A stretch of 64,000 bases of DNA. It comes from Escherichia phage WPEC3. Where the stretch lies: sequence record PV611058. The stretch is one strand, 5' to 3'. Of the stretch, positions 40,609-45,787 are shown piece after piece. A program made the position numbers and the translations under genes. Under the pieces are notes generated by a model that did no database searches, was not told the origin of the DNA, and saw only the letters and a list, made by a program, of their open reading frames with translations. Position 1 is the stretch's first letter. Every line of letters starts with the position of its first letter.

Positions 40609-41202
40609 TCAGTATTTCAAAATATCAAACTCTGGACTAACACTTGTTACATTATCACTAACAATTTTGAAAATAGACTCAACACGTTCATGCAACTGAA
40701 CATTGGTTTCTTCTTGAACTTCAATATACGCTGACATGGATGCAATTGCATGATAAGTCCCACTTCCGACAGCAGTAATTTGTGTTTTAGGTTGCAGTAC
40801 TGAAAAGTCTTCTTGAACTTCATAAATCGTATGATTATGAAGAATAATGAACTGACCACCACCAACATCTTGTGATGCATCACGAGCACCCCATTCATCT
40901 TTAAACATTTGACGAATGATAGGAATAACTTTCAGTACTAGATACTGTGAAAAGGTTTCCCCTGCAACTTGTTCTGGTAGAGTTAGGTTGTAATTCAACA
41001 ACTGACCCATACGGAACGATGTAGTATACCCTAACGCCATTACTTCTTTAGTGCGAGTAAGACCATCCTCATTGAGTTTAATGAACTCTTTCTCAAACAC
41101 TTTAGGCTCAGTTTGAACTGCTTTTGTGAAACCATTGCTTCCTAATTTATCACCAGCGATGAAGGAAGATGTGCCATTTGTGTGAGCGATAATACAAGTC
41201 AT
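40609..41202 (-). CDS. HslV / proteasome beta-subunit-like Ntn-hydrolase peptidase
   Basis: start set at the Met preceded by AAGGAG (7 nt spacer), giving N-terminal MT-CIIAHTNG...FIAGD and later ITAVGSG, matching HslV Thr1 / IAGD / GSG blocks; ATGA overlap with upstream gene. Confidence 0.6.
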   Translation of the reverse strand: MTCIIAHTNGTSSFIAGDKLGSNGFTKAVQTEPKVFEKEFIKLNEDGLTRTKEVMALGYTTSFRMGQLLNYNLTLPEQVAGETFSQYLVLKVIPIIRQMFKDEWGARDASQDVGGGQFIILHNHTIYEVQEDFSVLQPKTQITAVGSGTYHAIASMSAYIEVQEETNVQLHERVESIFKIVSDNVTSVSPEFDILKY

Positions 41203-41459
41203 GAAATAACTCCTTGTGCAAAAAGTGCCGTATACAACCAGTATATCAGCAACCCTAGTGTAAGTAAACATGCTCCATAAGAAATTGATAGAACATAGTA
41301 AATTCCTGCTTCTAACTTGGATGCAAATTTGTGTGTACTGGAATCCATAAAACCACGTTTGTAGTCTTTATAGATGAAACATGTTAAAACTAATGTAATG
41401 CAATATACAATAGTTGTTGCATAAAAAACAAGAGATGTTAAGTTTTGTAAATTTGTCAT
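41199..41459 (-). CDS. small membrane protein
   Basis: 86 aa; two or three hydrophobic helices; translationally coupled to the HslV-like gene. Confidence 0.5.
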   Translation of the reverse strand: MTNLQNLTSLVFYATTIVYCITLVLTCFIYKDYKRGFMDSSTHKFASKLEAGIYYVLSISYGACLLTLGLLIYWLYTALFAQGVIS

Positions 41460-41551
41460 AGTTTATACACTCCTAGTGTATGTTAACTTATAACAAAGGA
41501 TGTACCACTTTATCATCCTCTTATTATAATATTATTATTTTGTATCTAAAA

Positions 41552-42160
41552 CTAATGAATGATACTACCTAATTCGAGTAACTGCTCTGGTGTAAGTCTC
41601 ACAACTTCATTACCACGAACCTTACTAACCTCCACTAACAATTCTGGAGGAATACCATTCGCTGCATATAACGCAAATAGAACACCAACCTTAGTTGATA
41701 GCTGTTCAGCAAAAATAGTCAATTGGCGAACTGTTATGTATGTGTCATCACTATTTCGTGCTTTACTTTCGATTGACACATTATGTAGACCTAGGATTGA
41801 GTCCTTCATCATGTATCTGTTTTCTATATTAGCACTAAAGAATGCGATAGTGCAAGAAGAATTACAATATCTTTCAACAATAATTGTTAAATTGTTATCA
41901 TTGACAAAATTTCCTAGTGCCACTCCCGCATCAAAATCACCACCTGGTGACGTAATGATGATAGTGTCAAATGGGTGTGTTTCTCTAAAAACCATCAAAC
42001 GGTTTACAGTATTTTCAGTTAAAGTTGAAATGAACTGAACTGTCTGTTTAGATTCATCATATCTAATGATACTTTTTCTTTCAACACCTGCACTTGCAGG
42101 AAAGTTAATTAAGAAAATAATAATAATAGATTGGATGATTTCTTTATATAATCGTACCAC
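41552..42160 (-). CDS. secreted ClpP/S49-fold serine peptidase-like protein
   Basis: 202 aa; GTG start 7 nt after AAGAGGG; N-terminal signal-like hydrophobic segment; ITSPGGDFDAG, CNSSCT and LHN blocks align with ClpP INSPGG / AASMG / HQP. Confidence 0.55.
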   Translation of the reverse strand: MVRLYKEIIQSIIIIFLINFPASAGVERKSIIRYDESKQTVQFISTLTENTVNRLMVFRETHPFDTIIITSPGGDFDAGVALGNFVNDNNLTIIVERYCNSSCTIAFFSANIENRYMMKDSILGLHNVSIESKARNSDDTYITVRQLTIFAEQLSTKVGVLFALYAANGIPPELLVEVSKVRGNEVVRLTPEQLLELGSIIH

Positions 42161-42200
42161 TGGTTAACCCTCTTAGTTGATTGTTGATTACATAAATAAT

Positions 42201-42227
42201 ATTATAGGAAGATTTAACTTAAGTCAA
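42201..42227 (-). promoter_or_regulatory. sigma70-like promoter candidate (TTGACT-N15-TATAAT)
   Basis: minus-strand TTGACT and TATAAT hexamers, 15 nt spacer, ~35 nt upstream of the SD of 41552-42160; an extended -10 TGATATAAT lies at 42296-42304. Confidence 0.35.
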
Positions 42228-42409
42228 ATTGTTTTTTATATCACTTCACAAATTCCCTCGCAGAATCACCCCGCCTTTTTACCTTCTTTTGGATGATTAT
42301 ATCACACTAATGTATAATGTCTATACTTTTGTCAACAAATAACGTGGTAGTACTGAACTCGTTGTTGGTTCTAAGAGTTTTCCTGAAATTCAAATTATCG
42401 TGTACTAAC

Positions 42410-42442
42410 AAAAGAAAAAGGAGCCTCATGGCTCCTTTTTTT
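42410..42442 (-). terminator. rho-independent terminator (bidirectional appearance)
   Basis: stem ggagcc/ggctcc, 4 nt loop, flanked by A-run and T8-run. Confidence 0.6.
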
Positions 42443-43662: not shown

Positions 43663-43663
43663 A

Positions 43664-44188
43664 TTAATCCTCTAAATTCCATTCATCAACCATAGTTGAG
43701 CATAATTCCATGTGTCGGAAATATTTCTCATTAAGTGAATATGGACTCTTATAAAATTGTCGTACATCAGTGAATATATCATAGTTTCTATATATAAATG
43801 ACATATTTTTATTCATGAATTCTATAATCTTCCATAACTTTTCTGTATCGTTTTGTATAGTTTCTGTACTCAATCCCGTCAATTTCATTAGACGCTTGAT
43901 TTTAAAGCCAGACTCTATTGACGTATTATTATGCTTGGTTAAGTAACTATAGCCAATGGAACTATATATTAGTTCAATACTATCAGTACTAGTTATTGTT
44001 CCTAGAAATGATTTTAAATTTCTATTCAACCAATACCATTTTTTGTTCTTGTTATAGCAAGAATACCACTTTTTAACTATAGCTATTGCCTCTGAATTTA
44101 AACTTTCGGCAAATTCATCAATTAAAAACATGTGATTGAAAAATAAATCACTTTGATCTTCAGATAATTTATATTGCTGCATATCCAC
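43664..44188 (-). CDS. hypothetical protein
   Basis: 174 aa ORF. Confidence 0.5.
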   Translation of the reverse strand: MDMQQYKLSEDQSDLFFNHMFLIDEFAESLNSEAIAIVKKWYSCYNKNKKWYWLNRNLKSFLGTITSTDSIELIYSSIGYSYLTKHNNTSIESGFKIKRLMKLTGLSTETIQNDTEKLWKIIEFMNKNMSFIYRNYDIFTDVRQFYKSPYSLNEKYFRHMELCSTMVDEWNLED

Positions 44189-44301
44189 CTACCCTATTAA
44201 CAATTACACCTTGGGTATTTACCTCGTATGGATCAATTTTTGATCAATAATTTTTGATATGCAGCAAATAAAATGGGAATCATGAAAGATTCCCTAAGTA
44301 A

Positions 44302-44802
44302 TTATTTCTGGAATGGAGTGTACTGGTACTGCTCACAATCAGATACAGTTAGTACACCTTCATCATAACCGTACTGGAGAATAAGATCAAATGCTTTATC
44401 AACCATAGCTACAACGTCTTTGTAACGAACGATGGTATGTGCCTGTTTCTCAACTGCTTTCATAATACCCATCAACATCCAGCGACCTTCATCAGTGTGA
44501 AGTTTAGCAAAACGAGGACGTTTAGTTGCTGCCATAATGTCAGTCCATTCTGCTTTAAACACTGATGGACGTTTAGGAATATCATACAGAGTTGTTGGGA
44601 ATGTTACGTTGTTTTTCTTCATAGCTTCAGCTTGTGCAGCACGATAACCTTGACGGAATAGTGGGTGCTGTGATTTTAGCTGTTCATTGTTAAAAACTAC
44701 TTTGTTTTTAAACGCGGCAGAACCTTCTTTGTATTGTGCATTAGACATATTATTCTTTCCCCTCGTCAGTACTGATGAATTTTTTATCTGAGAATGTGCC
44801 AT
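44302..44802 (-). CDS. hypothetical protein
   Basis: 166 aa ORF (true start may be the internal Met near 44748). Confidence 0.5.
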   Translation of the reverse strand: MAHSQIKNSSVLTRGKNNMSNAQYKEGSAAFKNKVVFNNEQLKSQHPLFRQGYRAAQAEAMKKNNVTFPTTLYDIPKRPSVFKAEWTDIMAATKRPRFAKLHTDEGRWMLMGIMKAVEKQAHTIVRYKDVVAMVDKAFDLILQYGYDEGVLTVSDCEQYQYTPFQK

Positions 44803-45079
44803 GTTCTTGACGCATAGCTTCTGCGTGTTGAACTGCGTTAATTGGATTAATGTTCTTTTTAATAAGAACTTCTTGCATTAATTCGAGAACAATAGAAAAA
44901 CCATTGAGTACTCGTTCTGCCTCGTCAACACCTTTCAATTCAATAGCCACTGCACTAATCTGATCTAATGCGGTATTAATAAACTCTGAATCATCTAACA
45001 CATCATTGACTTCAGTATTATTACGTACAAGAACTTTCATATAATCTCCAGAAATAAGATGCCCCAAATGAGGCATCAA
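44750..45079 (-). CDS. hypothetical protein
   Basis: 109 aa ORF immediately downstream of clpP. Confidence 0.5.
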   Translation of the reverse strand: MMPHLGHLISGDYMKVLVRNNTEVNDVLDDSEFINTALDQISAVAIELKGVDEAERVLNGFSIVLELMQEVLIKKNINPINAVQHAEAMRQEHGTFSDKKFISTDEGKE

Positions 45080-45091
45080 ATGAAATTCAAA

Positions 45092-45787
45092 TTAGACCCA
45101 CTCTTCCACGCCACCGCGACGTTTGACGAGATACTTACCTTCTTCGTTGCGTGGACCAAGGATGATACCATCAATGAAACCATGTTCACCGTATTCGAGT
45201 GCTTCTTCAGCGTTCAACCACAGGTCACGATCCGCATCTTTCAGTAGTTGTTCGTGTGATACACCAACTGCTTCAGCGATTTCTTTAGTCAGTAGTGTGT
45301 TCAATGCATCAGAGTGTTTCAAGGAAATCTTCTGATCAGTAATCAGACCCTGAGTACCGGAACTTACTTGGTGACACATGAAGTAAGAACGCTTCCCGCC
45401 TAGACGGAAACCTTTAGTACCAACTACTGATTGTGTATAGCAACCCATTGATGCTGCATAACCCATTACTACTGTACGGATAGGAGATACACAAGACTTA
45501 GCAATGTCAGCGATACCCAAACCTGCGTGTACTGAACCACCAGGAGAACTAATGTAGAAGGTAATTGGTTCAGAACCCTGAGAATCCAACCACACCAATT
45601 GTTGCTTGATGATATGTGCCATTTGGTCATTGAAGTCAGTATCAAGGAAAATGATACGGTCTTGCATCATACGAGATGCTAGATCATAAGTACGTTCTGC
45701 ACCATTAACTTTTTCAACTACATAAGGAATAGAAATGTTGCGAACTTCACCACCAGCATAACCACCAAAATTGAATTGTTCAACCAT
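45092..45787 (-). CDS. clpP: ATP-dependent Clp protease proteolytic subunit homolog
   Basis: 231 aa; ISSPGG, GYAASMG (Ser), MCHQ (His) and DRD (Asp) blocks of the ClpP catalytic triad. Confidence 0.8.
   Translation of the reverse strand: MVEQFNFGGYAGGEVRNISIPYVVEKVNGAERTYDLASRMMQDRIIFLDTDFNDQMAHIIKQQLVWLDSQGSEPITFYISSPGGSVHAGLGIADIAKSCVSPIRTVVMGYAASMGCYTQSVVGTKGFRLGGKRSYFMCHQVSSGTQGLITDQKISLKHSDALNTLLTKEIAEAVGVSHEQLLKDADRDLWLNAEEALEYGEHGFIDGIILGPRNEEGKYLVKRRGGVEEWV

Follow-up and report, generated by a model that had tools for sequence, protein, structure and literature searches.

Three putative proteases of an Asteriusvirus-like jumbo coliphage: a ClpP homolog with a probable phage-encoded ClpA partner, an HslV-like protein and a predicted exported ClpP-fold hydrolase

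The window analysed here, i.e. the whole stretch of 64,000 nt from Escherichia phage WPEC3 (accession number PV611058), shares 98–99 % DNA identity with the published Asteriusvirus-like jumbo coliphages WPEC5, Ecwhy_1, fEgEco12 and TH47. A preliminary description had reported three peptidase homologs within about 5 kb of it (40609–45787), and all three ORFs, which lie on the minus strand, were recovered there and their families confirmed. All three genes are already annotated as proteases in the 98–99 % identical published phages, and the Clp genes of the RaK2-like clade have been discussed in print; for the three proteases we found annotation-level comments only and no experimental study. Judging from profile searches and alignments, they are real peptidase homologs with intact catalytic residues: these residues are present on alignment in all three, the profile HMMs matched the respective families, and the AF2 folds support the assignment of the HslV-like and the exported protein. 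The features of the region are as follows.

40386–40586, minus strand: hydrophobic small ORF of 66 aa, directly downstream of the HslV-like gene (equivalent of fEgEco12 g217; hydropathy)
40609–41202, minus strand: HslV/proteasome-beta-fold Ntn peptidase homolog of 197 aa, starting MTCIIAH (PHROG 1040, AF2, Foldseek, conservation)
41199–41459, minus strand: protein of 86 aa with two predicted transmembrane segments (sequence, hydropathy; fEgEco12 g215)
41552–42160, minus strand: predicted exported ClpP-fold serine hydrolase of 202 aa, GTG start (PHROG, Pfam, AF2/Foldseek, family alignments)
42089–42160, minus strand: codons 1–24 of the latter, predicted Sec signal peptide MVRLYKE / IIQSIIIIFLINF / PASA↓G, the arrow marking cleavage (hydropathy, model, conservation)
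42296–42323, minus strand: sigma-70-like promoter of the exported ClpP-fold gene, TAGACA-16-TATAAT (TGTGATATAAT; consensus match)
42415–42440, minus strand: intrinsic-terminator-like hairpin, 11 bp stem and T run, ending the upstream transcription unit
45092–45787, minus strand: ClpP homolog of 231 aa (Pfam PF00574, PDB matches, triad alignment)
45822–45849, minus strand: sigma-70-like promoter TAGACA-16-TATAAT, extended -10 TGTGATATAAT, 34 nt upstream of the ClpP start (consensus match)

The ClpP homolog matches the Pfam family CLP_protease (PF00574; E 1e-41, 142.9 bits) and ClpPs in the PDB (E 3e-36), and its residues S113/H139/D188 align with the E. coli triad S97/H122/D171, bearing out its earlier description as a canonical ClpP with Ser, His and Asp motifs. 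Relative to the E. coli protein it is extended by about 19 aa at the N-terminus and about 20 aa at the C-terminus, and the N-terminal axial-loop motif IPYVVE is kept; we estimate from the PDB alignments that its identity to bacterial ClpPs within the aligned core is ~45 %. The PBECO4 homolog is 96 % identical, a value comparable to those of core enzymes such as the ligase (98 %) and the dCMP deaminase (94 %), and ClpP is present throughout the RaK2-like clade. By these sequence criteria, the phage protein is a genuine ClpP barrel subunit.

For the HslV-like gene, the annotations of fEgEco12 and PBECO4 use the 197-aa start as well. The product matches PHROG 1040, ‘peptidase HslV family’ (E 2e-23), a phage-wide family with further members in T5-like, Aeromonas and Vibrio phages, and its AF2 model (pLDDT 92.7) finds HslV, BPH and proteasome beta subunits as best PDB folds (Foldseek; E 5e-10, TM 0.6–0.7). 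T2, D18, K34, G146 and G148 are invariant among 44 family sequences, position 147 being mostly Ser or Cys, and 44/44 relatives start with MTC. As had been proposed, the mature N-terminus after Met removal would therefore be Thr, giving T1/D17/K33/GSG, and the protein is predicted to be an N-terminal-threonine protease whose nucleophile would be bared by loss of the initiator Met alone. HslV (ClpQ) and the stand-alone BPH and Anbu, all of the proteasome-beta Ntn family, share the fold, the Thr following the initiator Met and the conserved Asp17/Lys33/Gly-Ser-Gly. In contrast to HslV, the phage protein, which is only 14–19 % identical to it, has no match to Pfam Proteasome, carries an extra beta-hairpin/insert region, is translationally coupled to a membrane protein and, judging from TH47, has no phage HslU. 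This coupling, also part of the preliminary description, is borne out by the stop codon of the 86-aa ORF, which overlaps the HslV-like start as ATGA, by an AAGGAG Shine–Dalgarno sequence inside the 86-aa ORF and by the two hydrophobic segments of its product, so that the HslV-like protein and a small two-helix membrane protein would be translated together. The PBECO4 homolog of the 86-aa ORF is unannotated, 63.5 % identical and shows the same ATGA overlap; no family was found for the protein in Pfam and PHROG. The 66-aa small ORF, 51 % identical to the PBECO4 region, may belong to the same functional unit.

The exported ClpP-fold gene has a GTG start 8 nt after AAGAGGG. Its product matches PHROG 26024 (E 5e-70) and, barely above the cut-off, Pfam CLP_protease (21.2 bits), and its AF2 model (pLDDT 88.5) matches ClpP in Foldseek (E 4e-8); in the profile searches, the family as such was not covered by Pfam or NCBIfam models. 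Invariant in the family are S71-x-G73-G74, C99-x-S101-x-C103 and H126-N127, i.e. Ser101, flanked by two invariant cysteines, and His126, while alignments and residue mapping revealed no conserved Asp at the position of ClpP D171. The signal peptide was called by simple rules, with the cleavage site placed by the AXA rule: a hydrophobic window spans residues 8–26, the model shows a helix at 2–19 followed by a low-confidence linker, and LINFPASA↓G is invariant among close relatives, the N-termini of the wider family being hydrophobic or lipobox-like. The claim of a signal peptide, an own promoter-like element and a GTG start is thus upheld by the ASA↓G site, the element at 42323–42296 and the GTG codon. 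On export, the signal peptide would be cleaved and the protein would then act as a periplasmic Ser-His hydrolase, its nucleophile elbow probably stapled by a C99–C103 disulfide.

Uncharacterised bacterial exported ClpP-fold proteins (e.g. Ferrimonas balearica WP_219172905.1) and further members of the ClpP/crotonase superfamily that are not ClpPs, such as SppA (S49) and NfeD, resemble the phage protein in their signal- or lipoprotein-like N-terminus, SxGG, C-x-S-x-C and His; SxGG, CxSxC and H are invariant across the phage and bacterial relatives, all of which have hydrophobic N-termini. The phage protein differs in its size, ~200 aa versus 230–290 aa, and in lacking the bacterial C-terminal extension. 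SppA uses a Ser-Lys dyad, whereas the exported phage protein conserves Ser-His. The absence of the canonical third triad residue, together with the very low sequence similarity to canonical families and the fast evolution of the exported protein (52 % identity to PBECO4, compared with 88–97 % for its neighbours), would fit a role of the HslV-like and/or the exported protein as catalytically inert scaffolds or decoys, sequestering e.g. host HslU or a periplasmic factor. We consider this unlikely, since T1/D17/K33 with G-x-G in the one family, and SxGG/S101/H126 in the other, remain invariant down to ~20–25 % identity, and invariant nucleophile and general-base positions point to selection on catalysis.

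Both sigma-70-like sites were predicted from consensus matches. The -35 hexamer of the ClpP site and the stop codon of the preceding ORF overlap, and the site of the exported gene lies just downstream of the terminator-like hairpin. The total of promoter-like sites in the region is not above that of shuffled sequences (31 observed versus 28.3). TH47 contains 13 exact copies of the 11-mer TGTGATATAAT, always on one strand, against a chance expectation of about 0.9 (our own estimate from base composition, made by hand), and the 11-mer directly precedes ClpP, the exported ClpP-fold gene and, in TH47, ClpA. ClpP and the exported enzyme appear to stand behind predicted promoters of the host sigma-70 type, and the timing of their expression is inferred.

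A phmmer search of the window's six-frame ORFs (E<0.01) returned no homologs of ClpX, ClpA, HslU or Lon, in agreement with the earlier observation that an AAA+ partner is not visible there. Outside the window, the evidence comes from the genomes of relatives, i.e. TH47 and its clade. TH47 encodes a ClpA homolog of 762 aa (ORF 289535–291823, minus strand; 43 % identity with E. coli ClpA across 732 aa) with the domains AAA, AAA_lid_9, AAA_2 and ClpB_D2-small, intact Walker A/B motifs and KYRG and GYVG pore loops, and a ClpP-docking tripeptide that reads IGM where E. coli has IGL. The gene is found in 8/8 closest relatives at ≥99 % identity, the whole RaK2-like clade carries ClpA co-occurring with ClpP, and the hydrophobic-Gly-hydrophobic docking loop recurs in the ClpAs of RaK2, GAP32 and Erwinia and Pseudomonas phages. 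The phage pair thus resembles bacterial ClpAP (a MEROPS S14 ClpP with the double-ring AAA+ ClpA) in the ClpP fold signature, triad and axial-loop motif and in the two AAA+ modules, pore loops and docking loop of ClpA; it differs in that its proteins score below the NCBI equivalog cut-offs or are only 35–45 % identical, in the IGM tripeptide, in the apparently changed ClpP pocket, in the lack of a ClpS adaptor and in the large distance between the clpA and clpP genes. Since the lineage encodes its own ClpA behind the promoter type of ClpP, ClpP probably has a phage-encoded motor and hence is no orphan. The phage ClpA would use its [I/L/V]-G-[M/V/F] loop to dock on ClpP and pass unfolded substrates on to it, the two forming a self-contained phage ClpAP degradation machine.

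It is possible, though doubtful, that ClpP and the HslV-like protein are instead orphan peptidases which hijack host ClpX, ClpA or HslU and steer these AAA+ motors to phage-chosen substrates. The window without an unfoldase would fit this, as would the IPYVVE motif and the ~45 % identity to bacterial ClpPs that we estimate. For ClpP, it is opposed by the full ClpA with docking loop that every close relative encodes and that shares ClpP's promoter type in TH47, and also by several residues of what we take to be the E. coli docking pocket (alignment read by eye), which appear changed in the phage protein; given the same changes, the pairing might be less specific, and ClpP might also use host ClpX or ClpA. 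For the HslV-like protein, host-unfoldase use is favoured by the lack of HslU, ClpX, Lon and ClpS homologs in TH47 and by the occurrence of the family in T5-like phages. Hosts of phages with this family generally have HslU/ClpY. Against it stand the low identity to HslV and a score of 19 bits on the HslV model, far from the 137-bit cut-off. On the gene content of TH47, the orphan status of the HslV-like protein holds, and it would either use host HslU or, like BPH, work as a chambered peptidase that needs no ATP. Conceivably, its partner could also be a second AAA-like ATPase of the genome, which is very divergent (442 aa, PHROG 1297). The earlier expectation that the peptidases work alone or recruit host unfoldases therefore stands for the HslV-like protein, but is not supported for ClpP.

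The ClpP fold is also that of many phage head-maturation proteases, and automatic annotation gives ClpP and the 202-aa protein this label: among the PHROGs, ClpP is matched best by PHROG 94, ‘head maturation protease’ (E 1e-43), and several GenBank records, as well as Pharokka/PHROG, name one or the other accordingly. The TH47 ClpA gene is moreover surrounded by tail and virion genes, so that an assembly-chaperone role would fit too, and a few neighbours of the three proteases encode virion proteins (phAPEC6 gp341c and gp347). One or more of the three could thus be virion morphogenesis proteases (acting on the head, the inner body, the tail or the fibres), ClpA serving as assembly unfoldase, yet we hold this to be very improbable. 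The head module of TH47 contains a dedicated S77 protease of the T4 gp21 type (Pfam 8.5e-21) with a gp23-like capsid gene at 252–255 kb, while ClpP lies at 27 kb, ~125 kb away from the S77 protease at the closest if the map is taken as circular; unlike prohead proteases, ClpP and the 202-aa protein do not adjoin portal, scaffold or capsid genes. In phAPEC6, where the head-module genes are gp225c–230c, the virion proteome of 62 proteins includes the gp21-like protease, but none of the counterparts of our three proteases (gp345c, gp346c and gp353c) and no protein of the 83.5 kDa of ClpA (PMC7247149). Both ClpP and the 202-aa protein score below the cut-off of the ClpP-related head-maturation model (51 versus 120 bits for ClpP, which is far closer to cellular ClpP), and the predicted signal peptide of the latter is incompatible with cytoplasmic capsid assembly. 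None of the three is therefore the prohead protease, as the preliminary description had argued for at least some of them, and head maturation is performed by the separate S77 gp21-type enzyme.

What the analysis shows is the structure of the genes, the folds and catalytic residues of their products, the genome context, the phyletic distribution and the common promoter motif. The reading that we favour, with a probability of around 0.7, is three separate non-virion proteases made in the infected cell, ClpP working with the phage ClpA. Such proteases would assemble, be exported or pair with their motor as outlined above, and their substrates may lie in the host and phage proteomes, which they would remodel.

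Genes for a dCMP deaminase, a DNA ligase and Nudix, Sir2-like and PhoH-like proteins neighbour the three ORFs. This agrees with the surroundings described earlier, but some neighbours are virion-associated in relatives, i.e. the PHROG 19307 ORF (43135–43662) and the counterparts of phAPEC6 PhoH-like gp341c and gp347. Therefore, the region is not purely non-structural.

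The 5.9 kb surrounding the three peptidase genes is 98-99 % identical, over the full length, to eight published jumbo coliphages (WPEC5, Ecwhy_1, fEgEco12, vB_Ec-M-J, EC.P1, CMSTMSU, Turkey3 and TH47) and around 80 % identical to the Asteriusvirus group PBECO4/121Q/phAPEC6/G17. TH47, whose genome is unannotated, is 97.8 % identical over the region, and the window corresponds to its positions 326.7-352.4 kb plus 1-47.5 kb. The initial observation of three peptidase homologues within this region is confirmed. At the level of gene discovery it is nothing new, as the genes are already in public databases with annotations and have been briefly touched on in print. 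Of note, the statements found in literature searches on the function of phage-encoded ClpP or HslV were limited to annotation-level remarks, and the fEgEco12 genome paper does not mention proteases. The genes of the region are all located on the minus strand, with the following features relevant here:

40386-40586, minus strand, ORF of 66 aa, strongly hydrophobic, immediately behind the HslV-like gene
40609-41202, minus strand, HslV-like gene (197 aa), start ATG-ACT (Met-Thr), as annotated in relatives
41199-41459, minus strand, gene of a predicted two-helix membrane protein (86 aa)
41552-42160, minus strand, putatively exported ClpP-fold protein gene (202 aa)
45092-45787, minus strand, ClpP gene (231 aa)
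953-963, 42296-42306 and 45822-45832, minus strand, the three exact copies of the 11-mer TGTGATATAAT in the window

The ClpP gene product proved to be canonical with respect to its Ser/His/Asp motifs, as first described. It matches the Pfam CLP_protease model PF00574 with 142.9 bits (threshold 20.2, E 1e-41) and reaches about 1e-36 with dozens of bacterial ClpP structures; the triad S113/H139/D188 aligns with S97/H122/D171 of Escherichia coli ClpP, and the N-terminal IPYVVE corresponds to the axial-loop sequence VPMVIE. With 153 bits it remains below the cut-off of the NCBIfam equivalog TIGR00493 (308.6), and we therefore regard it as a divergent ClpP and not as a bacterial ortholog. It is distributed throughout the RaK2-like clade, i.e. 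in RaK2/K64-1 (70 % identity), in GAP32, Eneladusvirus and Salmonella jumbo phages (66-70 %) and in Atu_ph07 (40 %), and its conservation with respect to PBECO4 (96 %) is on a par with that of the DNA ligase (98 %) and the dCMP deaminase (94 %). ClpP has been listed among the jumbo-phage peptidases that are probably host-directed (Iyer et al. 2021, PMC7824862).

Several GenBank records label these genes as 'head maturation protease', which is probably wrong; gene context, virion proteome and profile scores speak against a prohead protease role, which was rejected. The NCBI model 'head maturation protease, ClpP-related' gives ClpP only 51 bits against a cut-off of 120 bits. The head-maturation enzyme of this phage lineage would instead be a T4 gp21-type S77 protease, encoded in TH47 at 254.8-255.4 kb (phmmer 1e-15, Pfam Peptidase_S77 8.5e-21) and adjoining the gp23-like major capsid gene at 252.3-253.6 kb. 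ClpP is found at 27 kb, far from both, and thus not beside portal or scaffold genes in the full genome, while the window itself harbours no homologue of gp21, gp22, gp23 or gp24. Evidence in the same direction comes from the literature on the virions of phAPEC6, a relative around 80 % identical in DNA: its homologues of the three peptidases, i.e. gp345c, gp346c and gp353c, are absent from the list of 62 virion proteins, in which the S77 protease gp227c is present (PMC7247149). The non-head role proposed in the preliminary description is thereby supported.

The preliminary description further stated that no AAA+ partner was visible, so that the peptidases would have to work alone or recruit host unfoldases. 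We searched TH47 and the window, each as ORFs from all six frames, by phmmer with E. coli ClpX, ClpA, HslU, Lon, ClpS, ClpP and HslV. Neither contained a ClpX, HslU, Lon or ClpS homologue, and the window also lacked ClpA; the sole match to an AAA+ protease motor was an ORF of 762 aa in TH47 (289535-291823, minus strand), which matches ClpA at 6e-180 with 43 % identity over 732 residues. Based on the mapping of the window to TH47, this gene lies around 35 kb past the left edge of the window. The earlier statement thus holds within the window and fails for the lineage, as TH47 and the whole clade encode ClpA: eight phage records, corresponding to the eight close relatives, carry the gene at 99 % identity or more, it occurs across the clade as a whole, and Attai et al. 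(2018, PMC6102473) had reported its conservation for most RaK2-like phages.

The ClpA homologue shows the domains AAA, AAA_lid_9, AAA_2 and ClpB_D2-small and keeps both Walker A/B pairs as well as the KYRG and GYVG pore loops. The ClpP-docking SIGL of E. coli ClpA reads SIGM in TH47, and the hydrophobic-Gly-hydrophobic tripeptide recurs as IGV in RaK2, LGM in GAP32, VGM in an Erwinia phage and IGF in a Pseudomonas phage, giving a clade-wide docking loop pattern of [ILV]G[MVF]. From these sequences, the phage ClpP is predicted to pair with a cognate AAA+ partner carrying an IGF/IGL-type docking loop; the notion that it lacks a partner has to be abandoned, and ClpP is not to be regarded as an orphan. 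In vB_Ec-M-J, clpA is a lone opposite-strand gene amid tail and virion genes. The 85.4-kDa phAPEC6 virion protein gp240, considered as a candidate for ClpA, was ruled out by mass (ClpA 83.5 kDa) and gene order.

ClpA and ClpP also have promoter-like sites of the same type. The 202-aa gene is preceded at 42323-42296 by an 11/12 match to a sigma-70 promoter with extended -10, and ClpP by the same promoter type at 45849-45822, 34 nt before its start. A stringent sigma-70 pattern (T[TA]GACA, 15-18 nt, TA[TA][AG]AT) gave five matches in the 64-kb window, all on the coding strand, compared to 1.3 +/- 1.1 in shuffled sequences; three of the five are upstream of ClpP or the 202-aa gene, one of these three inside the preceding ORF, and two have an identical extended -10, TGTGATATAAT. 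TH47 contains 13 copies of this 11-mer, all in the same strand orientation, where around 0.9 copies would be expected by chance according to our own base-composition estimate. One copy, as TTGACA-N12-TGTGATATAAT, is located 38 nt before the ClpA start, and further copies are found ahead of ClpP, the 202-aa gene, several small genes of unknown function and, in tandem, a 442-aa AAA-like ATPase. The consensus of this promoter class reads T[TA]GACA-N12-TGTGATATAAT. At the sequence level, these motifs argue for a common promoter class of ClpA and ClpP, which would be recognised by the host RNA polymerase.

The HslV-like gene is translationally arranged as first described: its ATG overlaps the stop codon of the 86-aa ORF as ATGA, with AAGGAG seven bases upstream. 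The 86-aa ORF contains two hydrophobic segments and is conserved in PBECO4 with the same overlap, although unannotated there; together with the 66-aa hydrophobic ORF downstream, small membrane-protein genes are thus found on both sides of the HslV-like gene. The protein has no Pfam match, scores 19 bits with NCBIfam HslV (cut-off 137-158) and matches an HslV sequence of the PDB only in its C-terminal part (E 0.15). Having failed the curated HslV sequence models, it is HslV-like and not an HslV ortholog. Its AlphaFold model, built on 44 relatives (pLDDT 92.7), found as best PDB hits in Foldseek HslV of several species, BPH and proteasome beta subunits (E 5e-10 to 1e-7, TM 0.6-0.7), and the predicted structure has the alpha-beta-beta-alpha fold of proteasome beta and HslV. 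All 44 relatives, down to around 25 % identity, start with Met-Thr-Cys, in line with the earlier proposal of a Thr exposed after Met removal. T2, D18, K34, G146 and G148 are invariant among the 44, with position 147 being Ser in 32 and Cys in 8 (40/44 together); after Met removal, these conserved residues equal T1/D17/K33/G-S-G of the proteasome/HslV active site.

In bacteria, the HslU gene is operonic with HslV. No partner HslU for the phage protein was detected by phmmer among the six-frame ORFs of the window or TH47. Beyond jumbo phages, tblastn placed its family, PHROG 1040, in 196 phage records, mostly T5-like Epseptimavirus (around 30 % identity), the remainder being Aeromonas, Vibrio and other phages. 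Fuchur, a T5-like phage, likewise has its HslV-like gene amid nucleotide-metabolism genes and behind a membrane protein gene; homology between this membrane protein and the 86-aa protein was not detected, and the recurring order may be coincidental. Two distant metagenomic phage contigs carry a cytoplasmic ClpP-like gene (PHROG 1827) one small ORF upstream of the HslV-like gene (5020-6564 and 5107-6549). Neither fuchur nor Aeromonas phage 4L372XY nor a Vibrio phage shows such adjacency, which rules out a universal module and makes the pattern of a ClpP-fold gene beside an HslV-like gene suggestive only. Phage 4L372XY has two tandem HslV-family genes of 183 and 275 aa (locus coordinates 3001-4397). 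In the Vibrio phage, a peptide deformylase is encoded two genes upstream of the 'proteasome subunit' (locus coordinates 1498-3531), a neighbour of interest because Thr1 exposure needs deformylation followed by Met removal.

The promoter-like element and GTG start ascribed to the 202-aa gene were likewise recovered, the GTG following AAGAGGG and a strong terminator-like hairpin being located upstream at 42440-42415. The N-terminus is a candidate cleavable signal peptide, in which the n-region is charged, the hydrophobic core spans 13 residues and PASA|G is invariant; the AlphaFold model (pLDDT 88.5) comprises an N-terminal helix, a disordered linker and a ClpP-matching domain. Close relatives are few: a search of 5.8 billion proteins gave 10, and 47 phage records contain one (Asteriusvirus, RaK2/K64-1 and a single phage each of Erwinia and Xanthomonas). 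When 1.8 billion cluster representatives were searched with a profile, around 1,500 distant relatives were obtained (E<=1e-3), of which only around 15 aligned over the full length; the rest are bacterial hypothetical proteins, typically of 230-290 aa, such as WP_219172905.1 of Ferrimonas balearica. Every aligned family member has a hydrophobic or lipobox-like N-terminus, and S71, G73, G74, C99, S101, C103 and H126 are invariant across both family alignments. Alignments and model together point to a ClpP fold with conserved nucleophile Ser, His and oxyanion SxGG, while the third triad residue (ClpP Asp171 position) is not conserved in these alignments. The bacterial exported or lipoprotein-like ClpP-fold family shares YC-x-SSCANY and the GWHG histidine. 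C99 and C103 bracket the nucleophile and are the sole cysteines of the 202-aa protein, which would fit an oxidising, extracytoplasmic location. No Pfam or NCBIfam model exceeded its cut-off in the bacterial members sampled, and the C-x-S-x-C family comprises around 1,500 mostly bacterial cluster representatives without a curated model.

Identity to PBECO4 is 52 % for the putatively exported ClpP-fold protein, 63.5 % for the 86-aa membrane protein and 88 % for the HslV-like protein. Window positions 41199-42160 form a local divergence hot spot with respect to PBECO4, flanked by genes with 88-98 % identity. The low values of the 202-aa and the 86-aa protein would be the pattern expected for host-interface proteins. 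A defence or anti-defence relationship of the peptidases was also considered and rejected, as PADLOC gave no match for any of the three or for the 86-aa protein.

The regulated proteolysis encoded by phages is poorly understood, most work having addressed the inhibition or exploitation of host Lon, ClpXP and ClpAP. At the residue level, the catalytic competence of the three peptidases is upheld by the triad in ClpP, T1/D17/K33 in the HslV-like protein and S101/H126 in the 202-aa family. It is tempting to speculate that the phage carries a compartment-spanning kit, i.e. a self-sufficient cytoplasmic ClpAP, a membrane-associated HslV-like protease and a fast-evolving periplasmic ClpP-fold protease, and that the recurrence of a ClpP-fold gene beside an HslV-like gene in distant phage contigs then reflects a functional two-protease module; taken jointly, we consider this unlikely, with a probability of roughly 15 %. 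If true, the HslV-like protease, coupled to a small membrane protein, would work without an unfoldase or with a hijacked one, and the periplasmic protease would target proteins of the envelope or of incoming phages, serving superinfection exclusion, receptor removal or counter-defence. Three leads are of modest interest: the ClpA and ClpP of the phage, which share a promoter type; a threonine protease resembling HslV that comes without HslU and is coupled to a membrane protein; and the 202-aa protein, putatively exported and fast-evolving, as a representative of a large, uncharacterised family with ClpP fold. A lineage with its own ClpA, ClpP, HslV-like and putatively exported ClpP-fold proteins offers a tractable system for studying what viruses gain from chambered proteases, be it shutting off the host, recycling amino acids, turning over their own early proteins or remodelling the envelope.

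Some further features were noted in TH47 and in the neighbourhood. The 442-aa AAA-like ATPase (PHROG 1297; TH47 313836-315164, minus strand, outside the window), which has two consensus promoters in tandem ahead of it, came to light via the promoter motif and scores only 21 bits with Pfam AAA, over the Walker A region. By size, it may be the 49.5-kDa 'ATPase' gp265c of phAPEC6 virions, and it may also be the MoxR-type ATPase described in group 2.2 jumbo phages (PMC7824862).

Just upstream of the peptidase genes, window positions 38390-39843 are an assembly artefact, containing the Illumina adapter AGATCGGAAGAGCACACGTCTGAACTCCAGTCAC twice (at 39321 and 39784), long homopolymer runs of G and of C and read-sized (around 155 bp) duplicated pieces that map to TH47 21948-22102 (twice), 238600-238758 and 257409-257563. 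Because the artefact interrupts the Sir2-like gene, the 341-aa ORF at 39351-40376 is chimeric. A 175-aa ORF of PHROG 19307 ('virion structural protein'; 43135-43662, minus strand) shares 47 nt with the 3' end of the dCMP deaminase gene (42705-43181). At the divergence hot spot, PBECO4 and phAPEC6 carry an extra plus-strand virion-protein gene (gp098/gp347), which this phage lacks. Since the PhoH-like protein and gp347 of this neighbourhood are virion-associated in phAPEC6, the 'metabolic' region also encodes packaged proteins.
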